Assembly (NCBI RefSeq): GCF_000016745.1
Contig: NC_009483.1
Coordinates: 210,001 to 242,000, forward strand
From: Geotalea uraniireducens Rf4
Lineage (GTDB): Bacteria > Desulfobacterota > Desulfuromonadia > Geobacterales > Geobacteraceae
Reading direction: 5' to 3'
Length of the DNA: 32,000 nt
This document shows positions 7,612 through 17,656 of the stretch, piece by piece. The stretch's first letter is position 1. Each line of letters opens with the position of its first letter. The notes under the pieces are model-generated. The model had not been told where the DNA came from and did not search any database. It saw only the letters and a list, made by a program, of their open reading frames with translations. Position numbers and translations under genes: made by a program.

Positions 7612-9237
7612 TTGAAGCTGGCCATCGACGCACTGCGCCAACCGCTCGCCACACCGCATACCCCGGCCTACTACGCCGCTTTGATAATCGGCGCCGCGCT
7701 TCTCCAGGGGATTGTCCGCATCTTTTCCCGCACAACCCTGCTCCATGCGGGCCGCCACATCGAGTACATGATCCGCGAGGACCTCTACGCAAAACTCCTC
7801 ACCCTGGACCTTCCCTACTTCTCCCGCGAGCGGACCGGCGACATTCTCTCCCGCTTTGCCAACGACCTGACCAATGTCCGCATGCTGCTCGGCTTCGGCG
7901 TGCTCAATGTGATCAATACCACGGTTGTCTACCTGGCTGCCCTTTTTCTCATGGTCCACATCAGTCCCTACCTCACCATCTGGGCCATCCTCCCCTTTCC
8001 GCTGACCATTATCGCGGTAAAAAGGATGAGCGCCTCCATGTTCCGCCTCTCGCGCAGGGGCCAGGAAGAGCTGTCACGACTCACGAGCCGGGTTGAGGAA
8101 AATGTCTCCGCTGCCGCGGTGATCAAGGCTTACTGCCGGGAAGAGGCCGAGATCGAGGCGTTTCGCGGCATCAGTCGGAGCTATCTTGACTGCAACATGG
8201 GGATGGCCAGGGTCAGGGGGGCAATGATCCCGATCATGGCCGCCACCGGTGCACTGGGAACGCTCATCGTCCTCTTCATCGGCGGCAGCCGGGTCATCTC
8301 CGGGGAACTGACCCTCGGCGACTTCGTCGCCTTCAACGGCTACCTGGCCATGCTCGTCTGGCCGACCCTGATGCTCGGCTGGATCCTCAATCTCATCCAG
8401 CGGGGCGCCGCCTCCATGTCGAGGCTCAACGAGGTGCTCGATGCCAAAGCTACCATCAGGGAGCCGGCGCAGCCCGCGGCCATGGGGACGATAGCGGGGA
8501 ACATCGAGTTCCGCAATCTTTCCTTCACCTATGACAGCGAGCCGTTTTTGCAGGACATCTCGCTGTCGATCCGCAAGGGGATGCGCGTCGGCATTGTCGG
8601 CCCTATCGGCAGCGGCAAATCAACCCTGATGCGACTCATCCCCCGCCTCTTCCCGGTGACAGACGGACAGCTCTTCATCGACGGGGTGGACATCAACCGG
8701 ATTCCGCTTCGGCAGCTGCGCGAGGCCATCGGCTTCGTCCCCCAGGAGAGTTTTCTCTTTTCCCGCACCGTCGGCGACAATGTTGCTTACGGCAAAGAAG
8801 GGGCGACAGCAGCGGAGATCGAGGCAGTCGCCAGCCTGGCGAGCCTGGCGGGGGATATAGAGCGGTTCCCCGACGGCTATGCCACGCTGGTCGGGGAGCG
8901 CGGGGTTACTCTCTCCGGCGGCCAGAAGCAACGGACCGCCATAGCCCGTGCGTTGCTGAAGGATCCGGCCATCCTCATTCTTGACGACCCCCTGTCGGCG
9001 GTGGATGCCCGGACCGAGGAGGATATCCTCCGCGGCTTTGCCGACTACTTCGGCGACCGTACCGTCCTCATCGTCTCCCATCGTCTCTCGGCCCTGCGCG
9101 ACTGCAACCTGATCATCGTCCTGGACAAGGGGCGGATCGTCGAGCAGGGGAGCCACGGGGAACTGCAGGCTCTGGGCGGCCGGTATGCGGCGATTCACCG
9201 CGAGCAGCAGTTAAGGCAAGAGATAGAGGGGTATTGA
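7612..9237 (+). CDS. ABC exporter, fused permease/ATP-binding protein (first of a tandem pair); true 5' end unresolved
   Basis: The ORF-track entry begins at TTG 7612. It has a type-1 exporter TMD, then Walker A GPIGSGKST, signature LSGGQKQR and Walker B ILILDDPLSAVD. The same frame stays open and protein-like back to 7477 (...REFSLLIRYIRESRRSYLLGALFLVGTNGFALLIPWLLKLAIDAL), but has no ATG/GTG/TTG there (see findings). Confidence 0.9.
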   Translation: MKLAIDALRQPLATPHTPAYYAALIIGAALLQGIVRIFSRTTLLHAGRHIEYMIREDLYAKLLTLDLPYFSRERTGDILSRFANDLTNVRMLLGFGVLNVINTTVVYLAALFLMVHISPYLTIWAILPFPLTIIAVKRMSASMFRLSRRGQEELSRLTSRVEENVSAAAVIKAYCREEAEIEAFRGISRSYLDCNMGMARVRGAMIPIMAATGALGTLIVLFIGGSRVISGELTLGDFVAFNGYLAMLVWPTLMLGWILNLIQRGAASMSRLNEVLDAKATIREPAQPAAMGTIAGNIEFRNLSFTYDSEPFLQDISLSIRKGMRVGIVGPIGSGKSTLMRLIPRLFPVTDGQLFIDGVDINRIPLRQLREAIGFVPQESFLFSRTVGDNVAYGKEGATAAEIEAVASLASLAGDIERFPDGYATLVGERGVTLSGGQKQRTAIARALLKDPAILILDDPLSAVDARTEEDILRGFADYFGDRTVLIVSHRLSALRDCNLIIVLDKGRIVEQGSHGELQALGGRYAAIHREQQLRQEIEGY

Positions 9238-11088
9238 ATGCACTTCGGCGGCATCTATGAAGACGAAATAGTCGGCAAGGCCTACGATCGACGGCTCATG
9301 GCGCGCTTCATCCGCCATGTCCTCCCCTACCGGCGGCTGGTGGTGGGCACGCTGCTCATTCTGCCGCTCTTGGCGGCGGCCAAGCTGGCCCAGCCCTGGC
9401 TTTTGAAGATCGCCATCGACAACCATATCGTCGCCGGCCGGATGGATGGATTGCCGCTCGTTGCCGCGTACTACCTGGCCCTGATCCTCGCCGAATCGCT
9501 CCTGACTTTTGTCGAGGTCTACTATCTCCAGTACCTGGGGCAGCGGGTCATGTTCGACCTGCGCATTGAGCTGTTCAGCCATATCCAGCGGCTTTCCACG
9601 CGCTTTTTCGATCGCACCCCGGTGGGGAGCCTGGTGACGCGGCTCACCAGCGATGTGGAGGTGCTGGGGGAGATGTTCGCCGCCGGGGTCATCACCGTTG
9701 TCGGCGATATCCTCGTGCTGGCGGGGATCGTCGGCATCATGCTCTGGATGAACCTGCGCCTGTCGCTGGTTACCTTTTCCGTGTTGCCGTTCCTCCTCTG
9801 GATCGCCTTCACCTTCCGTAACCGGATGCGCACCGCCTTCCGCCAGGTGCGGGCAAGGCTGGCCAACCTCAACACCTTCCTGGCGGAAAACATCGGTGGC
9901 ATGGCGGTGGTGCAGCTCTTCAACCGGCAGCGCGCGGAGCAGGAGGAATTCCGCCGTCTCAACGCCGCTTACCGGGATGCCAACCTGCCGGTCATCACTT
10001 GGGATGCGGCCCTCTACGCTTTGGTCGAGGCACTTTCTGCCGTGGCAGTCGGCCTCATCATCTGGTACGGAGGGGGAGAGATCGTTCATGGCAGCCTCAC
10101 CTTCGGCGCGCTGGTCGCCTTTATCCAGTACATCGAGAAATTCTTCTCGCCGATCCGCGATCTGTCGGCCAAGTATTCGGTCATGCAGGGGGCGATGGCG
10201 GCCCTGGAGAGGATATACCGGCTGCTAGACACGGAATCTTCCCCCTCACCCCAACCCTCTCCTTTAGGCCCGCTGTTTGGGTCCACCGGGGGAGAGGGGG
10301 CCATTGAAGCCCCTCTCCCCTTGGAAAAGGGTGGCGCGGAGCACCGGGTAATGGAACCATCCCCACCCTTCATCGAATTCAAGGACGTCTGGTTCGCCTA
10401 CCAGGGTGAAGAGTATGTCCTCAAGGGATTCAATCTCCGGCTCAAGCGGGGGGAGAAGGTGGCGCTCGTCGGGGAGACCGGCGGCGGCAAGACGACAGTG
10501 ACACGGCTTCTGTCGAGGCTTTACGATGTGAATCTCGGCTCCATCACCATCGACGGGGTCGACATCCGCGACCTCCCCCTTGACCAGTTGCGCAGGAAAA
10601 TCGGCATCGTGCTTCAGGACCCCTACCTATTCACCGGCACGATCGCCTATAACATCGCTCTCGGCGATGCACGGGCAGGGGAGCGGATGGCGCAGGCTGT
10701 CCGGGTGGTCGGCGCCGACCGCTTCATCAGCCGCCTTGCCAACGGTTTCAGCGAAGAAGTGCGGGAGCGGGGGGTGAACTTCTCTGCCGGGGAGCGTCAG
10801 CTCATCTCCTTTGCCCGGGCGGTGGCCTTCGACCCGGAGATCCTCGTTCTCGACGAGGCGACCGCCAGCGTCGACAGCGAAGCTGAAAGGCTGATCGAGG
10901 AGGGGCTCAAAGGTCTTCTCTCCGGCCGGACCTCATTGGTGGTGGCCCACCGCCTCTCCACCATTCAGGACGCCGACCGGATAGTCGTCATCCACCGGGG
11001 CGAAAAGATGGAGGAAGGGAGCCACCGGGAGCTGCTGGCGGCAAAGGGGCTCTATTACCGGCTATATCAGTTGCAGTTCAAGGATTGA
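9238..11088 (+). CDS. ABC exporter, fused permease/ATP-binding protein (second of the pair)
   Basis: 616-aa ORF whose ATG directly follows the stop of the previous gene. Walker A GETGGGKTT, signature FSAGERQL, Walker B ILVLDEATASVD and H-loop VVAHRLST. Probably forms a heterodimer with the upstream gene. Carries an unusual linker insertion (see findings). Confidence 0.93.
   Translation: MHFGGIYEDEIVGKAYDRRLMARFIRHVLPYRRLVVGTLLILPLLAAAKLAQPWLLKIAIDNHIVAGRMDGLPLVAAYYLALILAESLLTFVEVYYLQYLGQRVMFDLRIELFSHIQRLSTRFFDRTPVGSLVTRLTSDVEVLGEMFAAGVITVVGDILVLAGIVGIMLWMNLRLSLVTFSVLPFLLWIAFTFRNRMRTAFRQVRARLANLNTFLAENIGGMAVVQLFNRQRAEQEEFRRLNAAYRDANLPVITWDAALYALVEALSAVAVGLIIWYGGGEIVHGSLTFGALVAFIQYIEKFFSPIRDLSAKYSVMQGAMAALERIYRLLDTESSPSPQPSPLGPLFGSTGGEGAIEAPLPLEKGGAEHRVMEPSPPFIEFKDVWFAYQGEEYVLKGFNLRLKRGEKVALVGETGGGKTTVTRLLSRLYDVNLGSITIDGVDIRDLPLDQLRRKIGIVLQDPYLFTGTIAYNIALGDARAGERMAQAVRVVGADRFISRLANGFSEEVRERGVNFSAGERQLISFARAVAFDPEILVLDEATASVDSEAERLIEEGLKGLLSGRTSLVVAHRLSTIQDADRIVVIHRGEKMEEGSHRELLAAKGLYYRLYQLQFKD
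10241..10320. repeat. GC-rich palindromic (REP-like) element embedded in-frame in the ABC exporter gene
   Basis: Perfect 11-bp inverted repeat ggggagagggg (10289-10299) / cccctctcccc (10310-10320) with a 10-nt loop. An upstream ccctctcc copy (10255-10262) is complementary to ggagaggg (10291-10298). Confidence 0.5.
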
Positions 11089-11098
11089 CGGTACTTTC

Positions 11099-11216
11099 AA
11101 AGGGAAGGCCATCATCTATGGTGAGCGGCAGGTACGGAAAAACAACGCTCATGCATGAAATTGTACGGGAGAGCAATGAGACCGAGATTTGGCAAGAGTT
11201 GAGACGACACCTTTGA
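11099..11216 (+). pseudogene. Relic of a P-loop (AAA-type) ATPase gene, truncated and frameshifted
   Basis: Hand translation of two frames. Frame A (11099-11134) reads KGKAIIYGERQV. After skipping one nucleotide (c at 11135), frame B (11136-11216) reads GKTTLMHEIVRESNETEIWQELRRHL*. Joined, they give a canonical Walker A, GERQVGKTT. There is no N-terminal part (the ABC gene stop is at 11086-11088) and no C-terminal body. Confidence 0.3.
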
Positions 11217-11328
11217 ATTCTTGCATGCCAGATACAAATTGCTTTAACCATTGGAACCCCCTATAATCCGTGGTCATCTTGAATTCAATCACTCTGGGGC
11301 TGAAAAGTCTTTTCGTGATGGAGGCGTT

Positions 11329-11607
11329 ATGACAAGCAAATCCTTGCCGGTTCGCGGCAACTTATCCTTCGAAGAGCTGAAAAAGCTCAATGAGCATGGC
11401 GCGCAATACTGGAGCGCCCGCAAGTTACAGCCACTATTGGGATACACCCAGTGGCGGCGCTTCGAGGATGCGATCAAACGGGCAATGATCTCCTGCGGGC
11501 AGTCAGGGAATAATCCCGATTATCATTTTGCCGGCGCCGGCAAAATGATCGAACTCGGAAGTGGGAAGGAAGTACGCGAGACAATCAAGCGTTCTGTAAC
11601 CACGTAA
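11329..11607 (+). CDS. dinD: DNA-damage-inducible protein D (DinD)-like, N-terminal fragment only (likely truncated remnant)
   Basis: The region LSFEELKKLNEHGAQYWSARKLQPLLGYTQWRRFEDAIKRAMISCGQSGNNPDYHF matches, from memory, the conserved N-terminal block of DinD proteins (~270 aa full length). This ORF stops after 92 aa counted from the ATG at 11329, which has GGAGG upstream. The ORF track shows a longer TTG-initiated version from 11251. Confidence 0.6.
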   Translation: MTSKSLPVRGNLSFEELKKLNEHGAQYWSARKLQPLLGYTQWRRFEDAIKRAMISCGQSGNNPDYHFAGAGKMIELGSGKEVRETIKRSVTT

Positions 11608-11869
11608 TGCGCTGTTAGCATCTTACGTTCCTAATGCTAGCCAGTGAAAATGTAAAATTGGGCGAAGTAAGGTAAAAGCGATTGGCAATAACGACTTATT
11701 GTGTCGTAACCCCATCATAACATGGCAATAAGCAACCATCTTTGCTGGTAGGGACAAATTACATTTTGTTGGATAAATAAATGGTTTTCTGATAAAAACC
11801 AACCCGGAGAACGTTTTCGGCCATGTGTAATTTCGGCAGCTTTTCATTGACAGAGAGATTATCGACTAC

Positions 11870-14800
11870 ATGACTACCCCCGCACAGAAAGCAATCTGGG
11901 TAGAGACCCTCTGGCTCGGGAACCGAAGCCATCCTGATCTTTTTCTTTCTGTGGATGAGGTCATTGGTGTACCGCATGCCTCGGCCATGAGGATCGGGTT
12001 CAACAAATTGAACCTATCCGGTTTTTTCTGCATAGACACCATTCCCACCATTGCATTTCTTTCTCAAGAACGAATCAATCGACTCGAAATAACCAGGGTA
12101 CACAATGCCCTCTGGAACCAGGGACTGGTCAGCCTCCTTTTGGTCACGCTCCCCGACGAGGTCCGTGCTTACTCTCTGGCCAGGAAACCAACCGCAGCGG
12201 ACGAAGACCTCGACGACGACAAAAAAGACAACCGTCTTATTGATTGCCTTGATCTATTGAAAGATGCGCTTGAAATCTCGCATCTGATTACCGGGGTTGA
12301 ATCCGGCCGATATTTTCAAAAGAATAAAGAGTACTTTGCACAAAATGAAAAGATCGATGCATTACTTCTGTCAAATTTAAGGGCCACGGAAAACGAGCTG
12401 ACCTCTGCGCCACTCAATCTGTCAACCGAATCCGCTCAGGCACTGCTGCTGCAGATTACCTTTATTGCCTATCTCGAAGACCGGGGGATTATCGATCCTG
12501 ACTATTTCCGGGAGGCATTGAAAGGCAAGGGGATATCTACTTTAGAACAGTTGCTGGACGAAAATGATCCTGAAAACCTGAATTCGCTTTTCGAAAAGCT
12601 CCATGGAAATTTTAACGGCGACATATTCTTTGCGCCATGTGCATTTGACGGCGAAGCAAAGGCACCAGTACTCAATGCGGGCCATCTGCGAAGTCTTGCG
12701 GAATTCAGAAAAGGGGGTGTCGATAAGACTACCGGCCAAGGTCGTTTCTGGCCGTATAACTTCAAATATATCCCCGTTGAGTTGATAAGCGCCATTTACA
12801 ACCGCTTCCTTGGCGACAGGCCGGTGGAGCGCAAAGTGAGCGGAGCCTTTTATACTCCTCACTTCCTCGCCGATTTAACGGTCAACCAATTGTGGGAAGA
12901 ATTGACGCCGGCAATCCGATCAAGTCAAGACTTCACGGTGCTGGATCCGGCCTGCGGCTCTGCGATATTCCTTGTCAGAATTTTTCAACGAATGGTGGAG
13001 GATTGGCGTTTTCTTCATCCCGGCGGGACTCCCGACTGGGATACTCTGGTTGCCATCGTCGAAAGACTCAACGGTTGGGACAAAGAAACCAGCGCTGTAC
13101 GCATCGGCATTTTCTCCCTCTATATTGCTTTGCTTGAAGAAGTCGAACCAGCTGCAATTCTCAAACTGTTGGCGGAACGGAAATTGTTGCCCCCACTTTT
13201 CAGGAAGACGATGTGCGACAGGGATTTCTTTGGCAAAGATACGCCAAATACCAAATTCGATTTGGTATTTGGCAATCCTCCATGGGTAAGCCGTAAGGAA
13301 GATCAGGTCGTTTCTGCCACTGAATGGTGCAAAGCACACGAACTACCGATGCCGGCGAAAGAACTGGCCTGGGCCTTTGTCTGGAAAAGCATCCAACATA
13401 CTAAATCAGAGGGGATGATCGGCTTACTGCTGCCGGCCATGGGCGTTTTACTCAACCATAGCGAACCTTCCATTCAAGCCAGGGGGCTGTGGCTGAAACA
13501 GGTACTTCTGAGTAAAGTCATCAATTTTTCTGATATCTGCTTCCTTCTGTTCGACGGCGCCAAGCGACCGACGGCTTTGTGTATCTTTCGACCGTCCGAC
13601 AAAAAGCTTAGCGATTATCGGTTCGACTACTGGTGCCCTAAAGCCGACCCGTTGCTGCAACAAACCCGCATGCTTACGTTGAACAGAGGCGATAAGCTAT
13701 CGTTTAAACTATCCACGGTGCTCCATGATCCGGGCTCTTGGGGGCGGCATCTCTGGATGACAAATCGTGACATGAAACTGCTCGGCTGGATTGGCGGGTT
13801 GTCTCGTCTGGAGAGAAAATTAGCCACCTATAAAGAATCACAGCAGAAAGAGTTCGATAAGAAAACAAAAGTTTGGATAATTGGACAAGGATTCCAGCCT
13901 TATAATAGTGAAAGAAGCAACAAGAATACTAAACCGAAAAAATCTAACCGGGTCGAAAAAGTTCCATTTTTGGATGCAAATAAGTTTAACGAATATATTA
14001 TCCCTACGATTTTAATTGACAAGCCTTGGCATACTTCCTTAGTTCGTAGACTTGGGAATCAAGATGGTTTTATTGGACCGCATGTCCTTATACCAAAAGG
14101 CGTACGAAGGAAAACTGGATTATTGAGAGCGGCATACGTAGAGCATGATTTATGTTTTACAGATGCAATACAGGCGATCAATTTTCCTGAGACAGATATT
14201 CAAAGACTTAAACTGCTAACGGTTATACTGAATAGTCATTTTGCAGCATGGTTCTATTTTCATGAAACCGCTAGCCTTGGAGCTGACCGTGCCTTGGTTC
14301 ATGAAGAACAGCTATTGGCGCTACCCTTTCCAGAAATAGACGAGTTGCCTGATCCAAAAGCGGCCAGAAATGCTGCGGATAAGATTGTCATGATTTTTGA
14401 TGATCTGCTTTTGCATAAAGACACATATTCACAAGGCCAATTCCCCGACAACGAAACAATTGAAGAGGTTAACCGGCTCGTCTATCAATACTATGGCCTC
14501 ACTGAATCGGAATTCATACTCATAGAAGACACCCTCAACTATATTCTGCCAAGCATTCAGCCTCGAAACAAAAGCTTCCCGCATCTTTGGAACAAAGCCG
14601 GCAAGAAGCAATGGCAAGAATACATGATCACTCTCTTGTCCGCTCTTGAAGAATGGCTGGACAACGGGAGCCACCTGTCCGCTACATTGATTACCGACAA
14701 CCCAGACGTGCTGCTGCTCGGCCTGAAAATCGAGCAAAGCCGCCCCAAGCAGTCCATTACCTTCTGTGAACAGGGGGGCGATTTCAACAAAACGCTTTCA

Positions 14801-15001
14801 AAAATCAATGAAGAGCTTAAACAGCAGGTGTCGAGAAACATTCAGCTCATGCCCGATCTCCGCATTTTCATCGCCGACACCCTCTACCTGTTAAAGCCGC
14901 GCACCATGCGCTATTGGCTTAAGAGCACGGCTCTGAACGATGCTGATGCAATTATTGCCGATCTTCAAATCCAGAAATTCCATCATGGGTACAAAGGATA
15001 G
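11870..15001 (+). CDS. Large gamma-class N6-adenine DNA methyltransferase of the MmeI/PglX (Type IIL/IIG-like) architecture
   Basis: 1043-aa ORF. It has the helical spacer motif LLLQITFIAYLEDRGII and NFNGDIFF (MmeI/PglX-like). Motif X is GAFYTPHFLADL (~12841), motif I is VLDPACGSAIFLV (12938-12976) and motif IV is FGNPPW (13268-13285). The C-terminal target-recognition-like region contains LLTVILNSHFAAWFYF. No Shine-Dalgarno sequence precedes the ATG, and an in-frame stop lies at 11828-11830. Confidence 0.9.
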   Translation: MTTPAQKAIWVETLWLGNRSHPDLFLSVDEVIGVPHASAMRIGFNKLNLSGFFCIDTIPTIAFLSQERINRLEITRVHNALWNQGLVSLLLVTLPDEVRAYSLARKPTAADEDLDDDKKDNRLIDCLDLLKDALEISHLITGVESGRYFQKNKEYFAQNEKIDALLLSNLRATENELTSAPLNLSTESAQALLLQITFIAYLEDRGIIDPDYFREALKGKGISTLEQLLDENDPENLNSLFEKLHGNFNGDIFFAPCAFDGEAKAPVLNAGHLRSLAEFRKGGVDKTTGQGRFWPYNFKYIPVELISAIYNRFLGDRPVERKVSGAFYTPHFLADLTVNQLWEELTPAIRSSQDFTVLDPACGSAIFLVRIFQRMVEDWRFLHPGGTPDWDTLVAIVERLNGWDKETSAVRIGIFSLYIALLEEVEPAAILKLLAERKLLPPLFRKTMCDRDFFGKDTPNTKFDLVFGNPPWVSRKEDQVVSATEWCKAHELPMPAKELAWAFVWKSIQHTKSEGMIGLLLPAMGVLLNHSEPSIQARGLWLKQVLLSKVINFSDICFLLFDGAKRPTALCIFRPSDKKLSDYRFDYWCPKADPLLQQTRMLTLNRGDKLSFKLSTVLHDPGSWGRHLWMTNRDMKLLGWIGGLSRLERKLATYKESQQKEFDKKTKVWIIGQGFQPYNSERSNKNTKPKKSNRVEKVPFLDANKFNEYIIPTILIDKPWHTSLVRRLGNQDGFIGPHVLIPKGVRRKTGLLRAAYVEHDLCFTDAIQAINFPETDIQRLKLLTVILNSHFAAWFYFHETASLGADRALVHEEQLLALPFPEIDELPDPKAARNAADKIVMIFDDLLLHKDTYSQGQFPDNETIEEVNRLVYQYYGLTESEFILIEDTLNYILPSIQPRNKSFPHLWNKAGKKQWQEYMITLLSALEEWLDNGSHLSATLITDNPDVLLLGLKIEQSRPKQSITFCEQGGDFNKTLSKINEELKQQVSRNIQLMPDLRIFIADTLYLLKPRTMRYWLKSTALNDADAIIADLQIQKFHHGYKG

Positions 15002-15007
15002 GTACTG

Positions 15008-15661
15008 GTGACTTGCGGCGACCCTTCAATCTGGCTGAAACATGTTATCGGGGTTCATGATAAGGTGCTGCAATCGATCATCGATGTCTGGCCTGATTGT
15101 GCCAAGCGCTTTGACTCTATGGCGCTGGAAAACCACATTACTGATCAACTGGTTTTATCTCTCCAACGTGATCCACAATCTCGGAAGAACTGGCTGGTTG
15201 TTCCTCAGCTCAAACTATTGGATGAAGATCTAGCGGGAGATGTAGTAACAAAAGGTTTTATAGATTTTGTCATATATTTTGACCTTATACAGGAAAACTA
15301 TATCGCCTACGAATGCAAACGATTGAATGTCAACTTTGACAGTGGCTTTGAATCACTAGCGGATAAGTATGTCGATAAGGGCCTAATGCGTTATGTTTCG
15401 GCACAGTACGCCCAAGGAATGCCGTTCGGAGTCATGGTCGGCTATGTGCTCGACAACGATGTTCAGGCAGCTCTTGAGGCGGTGAAAAGTCAAATCCAAA
15501 AAAAGAAAGGCAAATTGTTTTGTTTTGATAATCTGCCAACATCCGACTTGCCTACTCTCTCCTTTACTTTTCGATTTTCAAGTACTCACATCAGAAAATA
15601 TGCAGTTATTGAAGTTCAGCATTTACTGCTGCCATTAACGCCTGGCGACCTCATCGAGTAG
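15008..15661 (+). CDS. Hypothetical protein with a PD-(D/E)xK nuclease-like signature, translationally coupled to the methyltransferase
   Basis: 217-aa ORF starting at GTG 15008, 6 nt after the MTase TAG (14999-15001), with AAGGA 9 nt upstream. Candidate catalytic pattern: E41 (ALENHITDQL), D86 (GFIDFVIYF) and E102-C-K104 (YIAYECKRLN). Order and spacing fit the restriction-endonuclease fold. The fold assignment is by eye only. Confidence 0.7.
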   Translation: MTCGDPSIWLKHVIGVHDKVLQSIIDVWPDCAKRFDSMALENHITDQLVLSLQRDPQSRKNWLVVPQLKLLDEDLAGDVVTKGFIDFVIYFDLIQENYIAYECKRLNVNFDSGFESLADKYVDKGLMRYVSAQYAQGMPFGVMVGYVLDNDVQAALEAVKSQIQKKKGKLFCFDNLPTSDLPTLSFTFRFSSTHIRKYAVIEVQHLLLPLTPGDLIE

Positions 15662-15745
15662 CGCTTCGATATGTCGGCAGACACATTATTTCTGCGGCAG
15701 TTTCCCTTGCTATTTTACTAATCGCGCACATCATGGAGCGACGTA

Positions 15746-17656
<1,911 letters not shown>

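Follow-up and report, generated by a model that had tools for sequence, protein, structure and literature searches.

In a 32,000-nucleotide (nt) stretch of the Geotalea uraniireducens Rf4 genome (contig NC_009483.1, positions 210,001 to 242,000 of the forward strand; we call this whole stretch the window and count positions from its first letter), two adjacent genes make up a real and strictly conserved cassette. The first (11870-15001, + strand, ATG start; Gura_0162) encodes a protein of 1043 amino acids (aa), hereafter the methylase, with an intact gamma-class N6-adenine (m6A) DNA methyltransferase core and the overall architecture of the Type IIG/IIL/PglX class of enzymes. The second (15008-15661, + strand, GTG start; Gura_0163) encodes a 217-aa protein, hereafter the small protein, that is likely to be a PD-(D/E)xK nuclease, judging by its invariant residues and a structural model. 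We lean, by a modest measure, towards reading the cassette as a restriction-modification (R-M)-type defence module in which the two activities reside on separate proteins.

The methylase and the small protein are encoded as a conserved pair

A scan of one genome per species (~186,000 genomes) gave at least 326 confirmed relatives of the small protein, and the best 80 of the 326 were used to seed an analysis of loci. A methylase homologue lies directly upstream, on the same strand, in 80 of these 80 loci, and it is full length wherever the contig allows. When metagenome loci were found via the methylase, a small gene with the motif ECKRL followed directly downstream in 4 of 4 long contigs. Contigs of a viral collection whose methylase is related end to end (43% to 23% identity) carry the small gene in 10 of 12 loci, the two exceptions being a locus cut by the contig end and a locus with only ~590 nt of downstream sequence; in viral-contig loci that are similar in the methylase core only, it is absent from four out of four. 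The neighbourhood census proposed in the original prediction, which had been made from the letters of the window, thus finds the pair conserved in all three sets. The carriers belong to Pseudomonadota, Desulfobacterota-type lineages, Acidobacteriota, Spirochaetia, Verrucomicrobiota, Actinomycetota, Gemmatimonadota, Nitrospirota and others.

At the junction, 25 loci show a 4-nt overlap of the genes and 14 loci a 1-nt overlap, both of which point to translational coupling. The identities of the two proteins are correlated pairwise, with r = 0.94 over 2,145 pairs (66 loci). In Geotalea itself the two open reading frames (ORFs) share one reading frame and stand TAG plus two codons apart (14999-15010); most relatives have an out-of-frame overlap.

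Some loci are arranged differently. In one protein (P0316) the C-terminus of the methylase is fused in frame to the small protein, the only such fusion among the listed matches, and in a chimera (P0275) a methylase-like segment similar to residues ~120-175 is joined to the core of the small protein. In ~5 of 100 loci (L001, L002, L028, L045 and L105) a stop codon or frameshifts interrupt the methylase gene. Three of the disrupted methylases (L001 121-3300, L028 7187-9998 and L105 1906-5017) are followed by a full-length small gene, and because these loci keep it intact, the small protein would not be lethal without the methylase if the disruptions are real. Finally, on the Agrobacterium tumefaciens plasmid pAtA74a_a (L098 4492-7381; also H5) an intact small gene lies downstream of a 739-aa methylase that corresponds to residues ~288-1034 and has neither the N-terminal domain nor the helical spacer. 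We considered this short form as proof of a dispensable N-terminus and dropped the idea, since methylases of the same subfamily are normally full length, at 1027-1034 aa; for that reason the 739-aa protein is probably a truncated derivative.

The large protein is a gamma-class methylase with conserved terminal domains

The gamma-class m6A methyltransferase core occupies residues 301-580 (12770-13609, + strand) and contains GAFYTP (motif X), DPACGS (motif I) and NPPW (motif IV). Pfam N6_Mtase (E = 8e-16) and Eco57I (E = 1e-8) match over residues 305-574, and both D359-P-x-C-G-S364 (motif I) and G468-N-P-P-W472 (motif IV) are invariant in 36 homologues. PDB sequences compared with the family profile gave matches to CamA, BseCI, MmeI, HsdM and PglX, all of them confined to the methylase core. 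The core is preceded by a spacer, mostly helical in the structural model (residues 141-300; 12290-12769, + strand), which contains LLLQITFIAYLEDRGII and NFNGDIFF and in which Q195, F198, Y201-L-E-D204 and N249-G-D251 are invariant (36 homologues); residues 185-427 partially match the BREX-2 PglX model of NCBIfam and the PglX models of PADLOC (BREX, bacteriophage exclusion). The motifs originally read from the translation, namely GAFYTP, DPACGSAIFLV and GNPPW in the order X-I-IV together with LLLQITFIAYLEDRGII and NFNGDIFF, are all there.

Residues 1-140 (11870 to 12289, + strand) form a conserved N-terminal domain that carries no nuclease catalytic motif. Its invariant set, established in 36 and in 66 homologues, consists of R19, P59, L81-W-N-Q-G85 and L103, and neither alignment contains an invariant D, E or K in this region; in the model it is built of helices and strands with a predicted local distance difference test (pLDDT) value of ~90. 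Pfam gave no nuclease-domain match anywhere in the methylase, although an unconventional site remains formally possible. Because the N-terminal domain has no conserved catalytic D, E or K, it is plausible that a nuclease is supplied by another protein.

Downstream of the core lies a putative target-recognition domain (TRD; residues 581-830, 13610-14359, + strand), which Foldseek aligns, together with the methylase core, with CamA; Pfam TaqI_C is matched in this region in some relatives. With a mean pairwise identity of 0.29-0.55 the TRD is not hypervariable, and conservation is fairly even along the whole chain (0.29-0.64). The alpha/beta domain at the C-terminus (residues 831-1043 and the stop codon; 14360-15001, + strand) ends in the strongly conserved motif LKPR..R.WL.STAL.DADAI, which is kept in relatives at ~25% identity; K1009, P1010, R1014, W1016 and D1024 are invariant in 36 homologues.

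Over its whole length the methylase matches the PADLOC model REase_MTase_IIG PDLC03623 (E = 7e-83, residues 52-1033 against profile positions 54-1013 of 1022), and a second REase_MTase_IIG model, PDLC03603, also end to end (E = 1e-38). An end-to-end match to an existing family had been named beforehand as a point against a new system: it is found for the methylase, in the stronger of these Type IIG matches, and not for the small protein. The full-length model of the methylase is confident (pLDDT 85.7, predicted template modelling score, pTM, 0.86). In Foldseek it is closest to CamA (E = 2e-17), with a template modelling (TM) score normalised to the target of 0.62-0.68 over methylase plus TRD, and it aligns with BpuSI, PglX/BrxX, MmeI and DrdV at E = 1e-11 to 3e-16 over 870-1035 columns, with TM (query) 0.33-0.43; the alignment with the MmeI structure 5hr4 covers 870 columns (E = 1e-13, TM 0.41 by query and 0.54 by target).

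The small protein carries an invariant E...D...ExK tetrad

Residues E41, D86, E102 and K104 of the small protein (codons 15128-15130, 15263-15265, 15311-15313 and 15317-15319) are numbered as originally predicted, and all four are invariant in alignments of 31, 66, 118 and 12 sequences, the 12 being the most divergent relatives. Across the 118 members, at 22% mean column identity, Y121, G125 and Y134 are invariant alongside the tetrad, and H194 and H205 are nearly so; in the most divergent set, invariance extends to Y121, H194 and H205 besides the E, D and ExK positions. As judged from these alignments, the tetrad is far beyond a chance pattern. The AlphaFold model (pLDDT 84.6) predicts a helix at 41-54, strands at 63-73, 79-92 (with D86) and 97-110 (with E102 and K104), a helix at 118-131 and a strand at 140-147, an order that fits the PD-(D/E)xK core.

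The small protein has no match in Pfam, NCBIfam, PADLOC or PHROGs. When the 118 members were scanned singly against Pfam, the only recurrent matches were weak ones to PDDEXK_9 (7/118, best E = 7e-4) and HSDR_N_2 (2/118). A search of PDB sequences with the single protein and with two family profiles gave no significant match; in one non-significant match the D...ECK segment was aligned to a chain labelled 'Restriction endonuclease'. The family itself is large. A homology search at the level of 90%-identity clusters returned 62 clusters, and an exhaustive search of 50%-identity representatives returned 1,426 at E <= 1e-3 and 595 at E <= 1e-10; the best 150 of the 1,426 are nearly all stand-alone, unannotated proteins of ~210 aa. 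A search with a divergent profile found 1,325 proteins, the best 120 of which are all 'hypothetical', none with a Pfam domain, and almost all stand-alone and ~210 aa long.

A proposed two-protein R-M module and the alternatives to it

Read as an R-M module, the cassette would work as follows. The large protein would recognise a specific DNA site and mark host DNA with m6A, and the small protein would be a Mg2+-dependent PD-(D/E)xK endonuclease that cuts unmarked incoming DNA. In a sub-variant of this mechanism the small protein would have no specificity of its own and would be a subunit that the methylase-TRD protein recruits or licenses, much as HsdR needs HsdM/HsdS in Type I systems and the small subunit needs the large one in heterodimeric Type IIS enzymes. 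Such a functionally 'split' Type IIG/IIL enzyme is less certain than the module as such. We favour the sub-variant because both ends of the methylase are conserved, non-catalytic domains for which a plain Type II methylase has no use, and because relatives of the small protein can still be recognised as one family where the methylases have diverged very deeply; the in-frame fusion P0316 and the pairing of a disrupted methylase with an intact small gene at L001, L028 and L105 favour it too, anecdotally. Of the split Type IIL/IIG-like system with a nuclease acting in trans that had been predicted originally, the conserved pair has been borne out, an N-terminus without conserved catalytic residues makes a separate nuclease plausible, and the nuclease fold lacks a significant Foldseek match. 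As a tentative possibility, clearly less probable than an R-M module in general, we put forward an unnamed and widespread R-M class in which a specificity-less PD-(D/E)xK subunit is brought in, or licensed to act, by a PglX/MmeI-like methylase-TRD protein whose N-terminal domain is non-catalytic. The conserved N-terminal domain with its ALWNQG motif might then be a regulatory or sensing element that gates cleavage.

A number of observations weigh against a two-protein R-M module, or against its subunit form. The best Foldseek matches of the small protein have E = 0.08 (PDB) and 0.005 (BFVD) with low TM-scores, and none is significant, so that of the predicted nuclease fold the residues and the order of secondary-structure elements stand and the structural match does not; one of five AlphaFold models was confident, and every sequence link to nuclease families falls under the curated thresholds. 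Comparison by hhalign of the small-protein profile with profiles of the whole methylase, its N-terminal domain, its TRD and its C-terminal domain revealed no similarity, so that the N-terminal domain of the methylase cannot be recognised as a degenerate paralogue of the small protein. Mirror-tree correlations and regression for the single domains could not locate a docking domain, since every methylase domain follows the small protein to a similar degree. An ordinary Type II pair would be expected to co-occur just as strictly. The fusion protein P0316 has a degenerate ExK motif and is probably defective, and the loci with disrupted methylases come from four metagenome-assembled genomes (MAGs) and one draft genome (L105) and may be assembly errors. 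No hypervariable TRD was seen, which would be unusual in Type I systems. Our literature search turned up no methylome, cleavage or phage-resistance data for any family member, and the methylomes of Blow et al. 2016 include none of the known carriers.

The main rival explanation is an ordinary Type II R-M system. The small protein would then be an independent site-specific restriction endonuclease (REase), probably homodimeric, acting on the same site as the methylase, and the extra domains of the methylase would be unrelated to cleavage. Much of what we observe would suit such a system: the order of methylase then nuclease, the tight coupling and the strict co-occurrence, a length of 217 aa that lies within the general size range of Type IIP enzymes, the C-protein-like small helix-turn-helix (HTH) genes found upstream in many loci, and a conserved TRD that could match a conserved recognition site common to both proteins. 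We nevertheless consider it unlikely, since the ~300 N-terminal and 210 C-terminal residues, unneeded by a stand-alone methylase such as CamA, are well conserved, and since the small protein remains one family down to ~23% methylase identity, whereas stand-alone REases usually diverge beyond recognition. A disrupted methylase beside an intact small gene would, moreover, be lethal with an autonomous REase, assembly errors permitting. An improbable alternative is a system that does not cleave, in which the methylase would set an epigenetic or BREX-like mark and the small protein would be its partner without catalysis, as a sensor, as a factor that activates methylation or gives it specificity, or as a DNA binder of nuclease-like fold. 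It would account for a structure search that did not confirm the nuclease fold, for PglX as the best whole-length structural match (TM (query) 0.43) and for the cassettes that adjoin a BREX pglX gene, and PglX needs partners to methylate (according to a preprint on Type I BREX). Yet invariance of an E...D...ExK tetrad in ~1,400 clusters is what marks an active site, nuclease folds that have become inactive typically lose such residues, and no BrxA, BrxB, BrxC or PglZ gene is conserved nearby. Inactive REase domains with a fully degenerate motif have been described (PMC12839542).

We give still less weight to a toxin-antitoxin or abortive-infection module, in which addiction or suicide would be primary and a small nuclease toxin, restrained by the large protein through methylation or binding, would be released upon infection or loss of the element. 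Plasmids, integrative elements and identical copies across species would agree with it, as would the tight translational coupling, and the conserved non-catalytic N-terminal domain could be the sensor; but small genes stay intact beside disrupted methylases, nothing points to a trigger, and full conservation of the active site of the methylase and of its TRD argues for selection on site-specific methylation. Least probable of all is that the large protein alone is a complete Type IIG enzyme and the small protein an accessory, be it a second-strand cutter, a regulator or a stabiliser. The end-to-end PADLOC matches (PDLC03623, E = 7e-83; PDLC03603, E = 1e-38) and the Foldseek alignments of ~1035 columns with BpuSI and DrdV speak for self-sufficiency, though a PADLOC label of this kind probably denotes, given how such models are generally built, a sequence cluster and not a cleavage activity for the clade. 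Residues 1-140, where MmeI, BpuSI and DrdV have their PD-ExK site, contain no invariant acidic residue or lysine; neither Pfam MmeI_N nor any other nuclease domain is matched, and PDB sequences match in the methylase core only.

Comparison with known systems

The cassette fails the defining tests for the MmeI family, for BREX and for Type I R-M. In its workings it appears most like a Type IIG/IIL enzyme split in two chains, or a Type I system without the motor. With the Type IIL/IIG enzymes (MmeI, DrdV, BpuSI, Eco57I) the methylase shares the succession of N-terminal domain, helical spacer, gamma-class m6A methylase, TRD and C-terminal domain, and it aligns end to end with the Type IIG models of PADLOC, which is a sequence-cluster criterion only. 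MmeI also resembles it in overall fold (Foldseek 5hr4) and in a gamma-class core with motifs X-I-IV. Unlike the MmeI family and Type IIG enzymes, however, its N-terminal domain is devoid of PD-ExK residues; Pfam MmeI_Mtase reaches 13.4 bits where the cut-off is 27, and MmeI_N, MmeI_hel, MmeI_TRD and MmeI_C have no match. Type IIL/IIG enzymes are single chains, whereas here a separate, obligately linked, nuclease-like protein of 217 aa is encoded downstream. A swapped hypervariable TRD is likewise not known from the MmeI family, in which specificity shifts via a few contact residues in a conserved TRD; enzymes of that family cut ~20 nt away from their site and methylate one strand.

Heterodimeric Type IIS enzymes (BspD6I, BtsI, BsrDI) combine a small catalytic subunit with a large subunit that is itself a nuclease or nickase, and their methylases are separate genes. 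Our cassette resembles them in concept only, as a small PD-(D/E)xK subunit without specificity that would be recruited by a large DNA-recognising subunit; the large protein here is a methylase. For methylase plus TRD the best-scoring match is CamA, the orphan m6A methyltransferase of Clostridioides difficile (profile E = 5e-11). CamA, at ~580 aa, is without counterparts of the N-terminal domain, the helical spacer and the C-terminal domain, and is not known to have a linked nuclease gene.

BREX PglX/BrxX is the best structural match over the whole length (TM (query) 0.42-0.43), and in sequence PglX is matched partially, over residues 185-427, that is, the helical spacer and the start of the core. 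The scores are far from those of genuine PglX proteins: against the NCBIfam cut-offs they reach 47.8/400 bits (BREX-2), 16.3/500 (BREX-1) and 12.7/900 (BREX-6), and the DUF7008 C-terminal domain of PglX is missing from the methylase. The label 'MmeI/PglX-like' given in the original prediction is thus apt for architecture and fold; at the level of families it is not, with the Pfam MmeI and NCBIfam PglX models far under their cut-offs and PDB sequence matches limited to the core. PglZ, BrxC, BrxB, BrxA and BrxL, as parts of BREX, are found neither in the window nor conserved across relatives. BREX systems have been described as apparently nuclease-free (PMC9122589).

Type I R-M systems are similar in that methylation and recognition sit in one entity and the nuclease on a separate polypeptide, and some members of the small-protein family weakly match HSDR_N_2, the nuclease domain of HsdR. 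Unlike them, the cassette has neither an ATP-dependent motor/helicase domain nor a separate HsdS; its nuclease-like protein is bare, at ~210 aa, and its TRD forms part of the methylase chain, with no swapping among members. Engineered HsdM-HsdS fusions restrict once they are complemented with HsdR, and an 'M-S fusion plus separate R' has been proposed as an evolutionary intermediate (Bower et al. 2018, PMC6158711). In one case, HVO_A0006/HVO_A0237 of Haloferax volcanii, a 'split Type IIG' has been proposed, where a stand-alone PD-(D/E)xK protein of ~219 aa might complement a Type IIG-like methylase without a nuclease; there a normal Type IIG gene has been fragmented in association with a transposon, and the nuclease piece is rare and homologous to Type IIG N-termini (PMC4389544). 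The small protein of our cassette differs from it in forming a family of its own, with a gene that lies downstream and is conserved across phyla. We also considered the BREX-related systems of PMC12839542 and rejected them, as these are multi-gene systems centred on DUF499 and a helicase.

Gene models and the low-GC island in G. uraniireducens Rf4

In GenBank the large product is 100% identical to Gura_0162 and the small one 99% identical to Gura_0163, both named 'hypothetical protein' and both shorter than our ORFs, at 1016 aa and 198 aa. The segments 5' of the GenBank starts (11870-11950 and 15008-15066, + strand) hold residues conserved in the families: R19 and P22 of the methylase and G4 and W9 of the small protein. 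Because these (nearly) invariant residues precede the GenBank starts, the longer ORFs of 1043 and 217 aa are the better models, and the annotated starts probably lie too far 3'. A Shine-Dalgarno-like AAAGGA, read off the sequence, lies within the final methylase codons (14993-14998, + strand), and the junction reads AAAGGA-TAG-gtactg-GTG, with a gap of 6 nt between the methylase stop and the start of the small gene. The ORF coordinates, the 6-nt spacing and the AAGGA ribosome-binding sequence inside the 3' end of the methylase gene all agree with the original prediction.

The cassette lies in an island of low GC content (0.43-0.50 over ~11000-15700, compared with ~0.62-0.66 on either side), consistent with the AT-richer insertion described earlier. 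Upstream the island is flanked by an ABC exporter gene pair (7612-11088) and downstream by selB (15746-17656; 379 bits against a cut-off of 242 bits), after which a chemoreceptor gene comes next. At its upstream edge is a 118-aa ORF (11251-11607, + strand), a relic of the N-terminal third of a DinD/Bro-N protein: it matches NCBIfam PRK11525 (DinD) with E = 6e-24 over profile positions 10-80 of 288 only, and also PADLOC PDC-S13 and Pfam Bro-N. The island had been described as flanked by gene relics; this fragment is one, and it has no comparable counterpart downstream. No PglZ, BrxC, BrxL, HsdS, HsdR, Res or McrBC gene adjoins the pair in the window, as had been noted. We found no tRNA, flanking direct repeats, Rfam families, consensus promoter or terminator in the island. 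Two perfect palindromes may be coincidental: one at 13243-13273, with 14-nt arms and a 3-nt loop, within the methylase coding region, and one of 28 bp at 11522-11549 in the DinD fragment, coding for the conserved HFAGAGKM motif.

Third genes, neighbours and mobility

In about half of the related loci a small gene abuts or overlaps the start of the methylase gene; it is absent from the Geotalea window. 'Two-gene cassette' is therefore an accurate description of the window, and elsewhere there are often three genes. Types a and b of this upstream gene, which form one family (~150-158 aa, 37 loci), weakly match MerR-type HTH proteins, type c (97 aa, 7 loci) is weakly similar to phage transcription regulators, and a further type, of the alphaproteobacterial subfamily (183-220 aa, 4 loci, L103-L106), overlaps the methylase start; examples are L018 6427-6903, L035 6460-6930, L072 6550-6843, L097 5424-5900 and L100-L106. 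By analogy with C-proteins, the small HTH-like gene probably controls expression. The corresponding place in Geotalea, the non-coding stretch 5' of the methylase gene (11608-11869), lacks any + strand ORF of >=20 aa; tblastn detected no trace there of upstream genes of types a, b or c, and no consensus sigma-70 promoter was found.

In a distant MAG (L048), a dinD homologue, a regulator, the methylase gene and the small gene follow one another in one lower-GC island. The DinD fragment of the window is 69% identical to the N-terminus of this full-length 295-aa DinD homologue (L048 2844-3731). A dinD-like gene may thus travel with the cassette in some lineages, and the Geotalea copy looks like a deletion derivative of such a four-gene island that has lost the regulator and the 3' part of dinD.

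Beyond the upstream gene, no further large partner gene is conserved across 28-80 related neighbourhoods, and neither are PglZ, BrxA, BrxB, BrxC, BrxL or Type I or Type III partners. The neighbours elsewhere are a mixture of housekeeping genes, mobile-element genes (integrases, transposases, relaxase, ArdA) and defence genes, the last including GmrSD, TIR, PglX, PglW, PD-T7-1, PD-T7-5 and other Type IIG-like genes in some loci. In two Spirochaetia loci (L020 3302-6934 and L064 3261-6917) the cassette lies 1 nt downstream of a genuine BREX-type pglX (DUF7008, E = 4e-144). On the Bradyrhizobium elkanii plasmid pBel61 (L097 9980-18636) it is directly followed by genes for a 1376-aa methylase with an Eco57I domain, an N1pC/P60 hydrolase and a helicase, perhaps another defence system that shares the island.

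The full pair is present on three plasmids, and the form with a truncated methylase on two further Agrobacterium plasmids; a search of a phage genome collection gave no match. An identical small protein (P0338, found in 230 blocks of the collection) occurs in many Alphaproteobacteria (L103-L105), encoded in an element with the order tyrosine integrase, 220-aa gene, methylase, small gene, an 842-aa DEAD/ResIII helicase on the opposite strand and a ParB_N protein, which suggests recent spread on an integrative element. Linkage of a methylase to a nuclease-like gene, a low-GC island, carriage on plasmids and integrative elements and the company of defence genes are general features of R-M systems, and all are found here.

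Implications

The biology of the cassette is probably 'just' restriction-modification. A full-text literature search that included the locus tags found no description of the conserved pair (REBASE and subscription journals lay outside its scope), nor does a recent survey of BREX-related systems (PMC12839542) describe it, and the small protein is in none of four family libraries, in keeping with the earlier remark that the pairing was not recognised. The small-protein family is large, with ~1,400 clusters at 50% identity, phylogenetically broad and unnamed in domain databases. As it is in no such database, defence-annotation pipelines see a lone 'Type IIG' or 'N-6 DNA methylase' and miss the likely effector.

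If the nuclease is a trans-acting subunit, the cassette would be a natural split Type IIG/IIL enzyme, with a bearing on how Type I, Type IIG and classical Type II systems are related. Should it indeed represent an unnamed class, the 'M-S fusion plus separate nuclease' intermediate that has been postulated between Type I and Type IIG would have a natural example in it. MmeI-type enzymes are prized for a methylase-TRD specificity that can be re-engineered, and a separate small cutter could give a modular scaffold for restriction or nicking reagents. In G. uraniireducens Rf4 itself, the cassette is a candidate barrier to genetic transformation.

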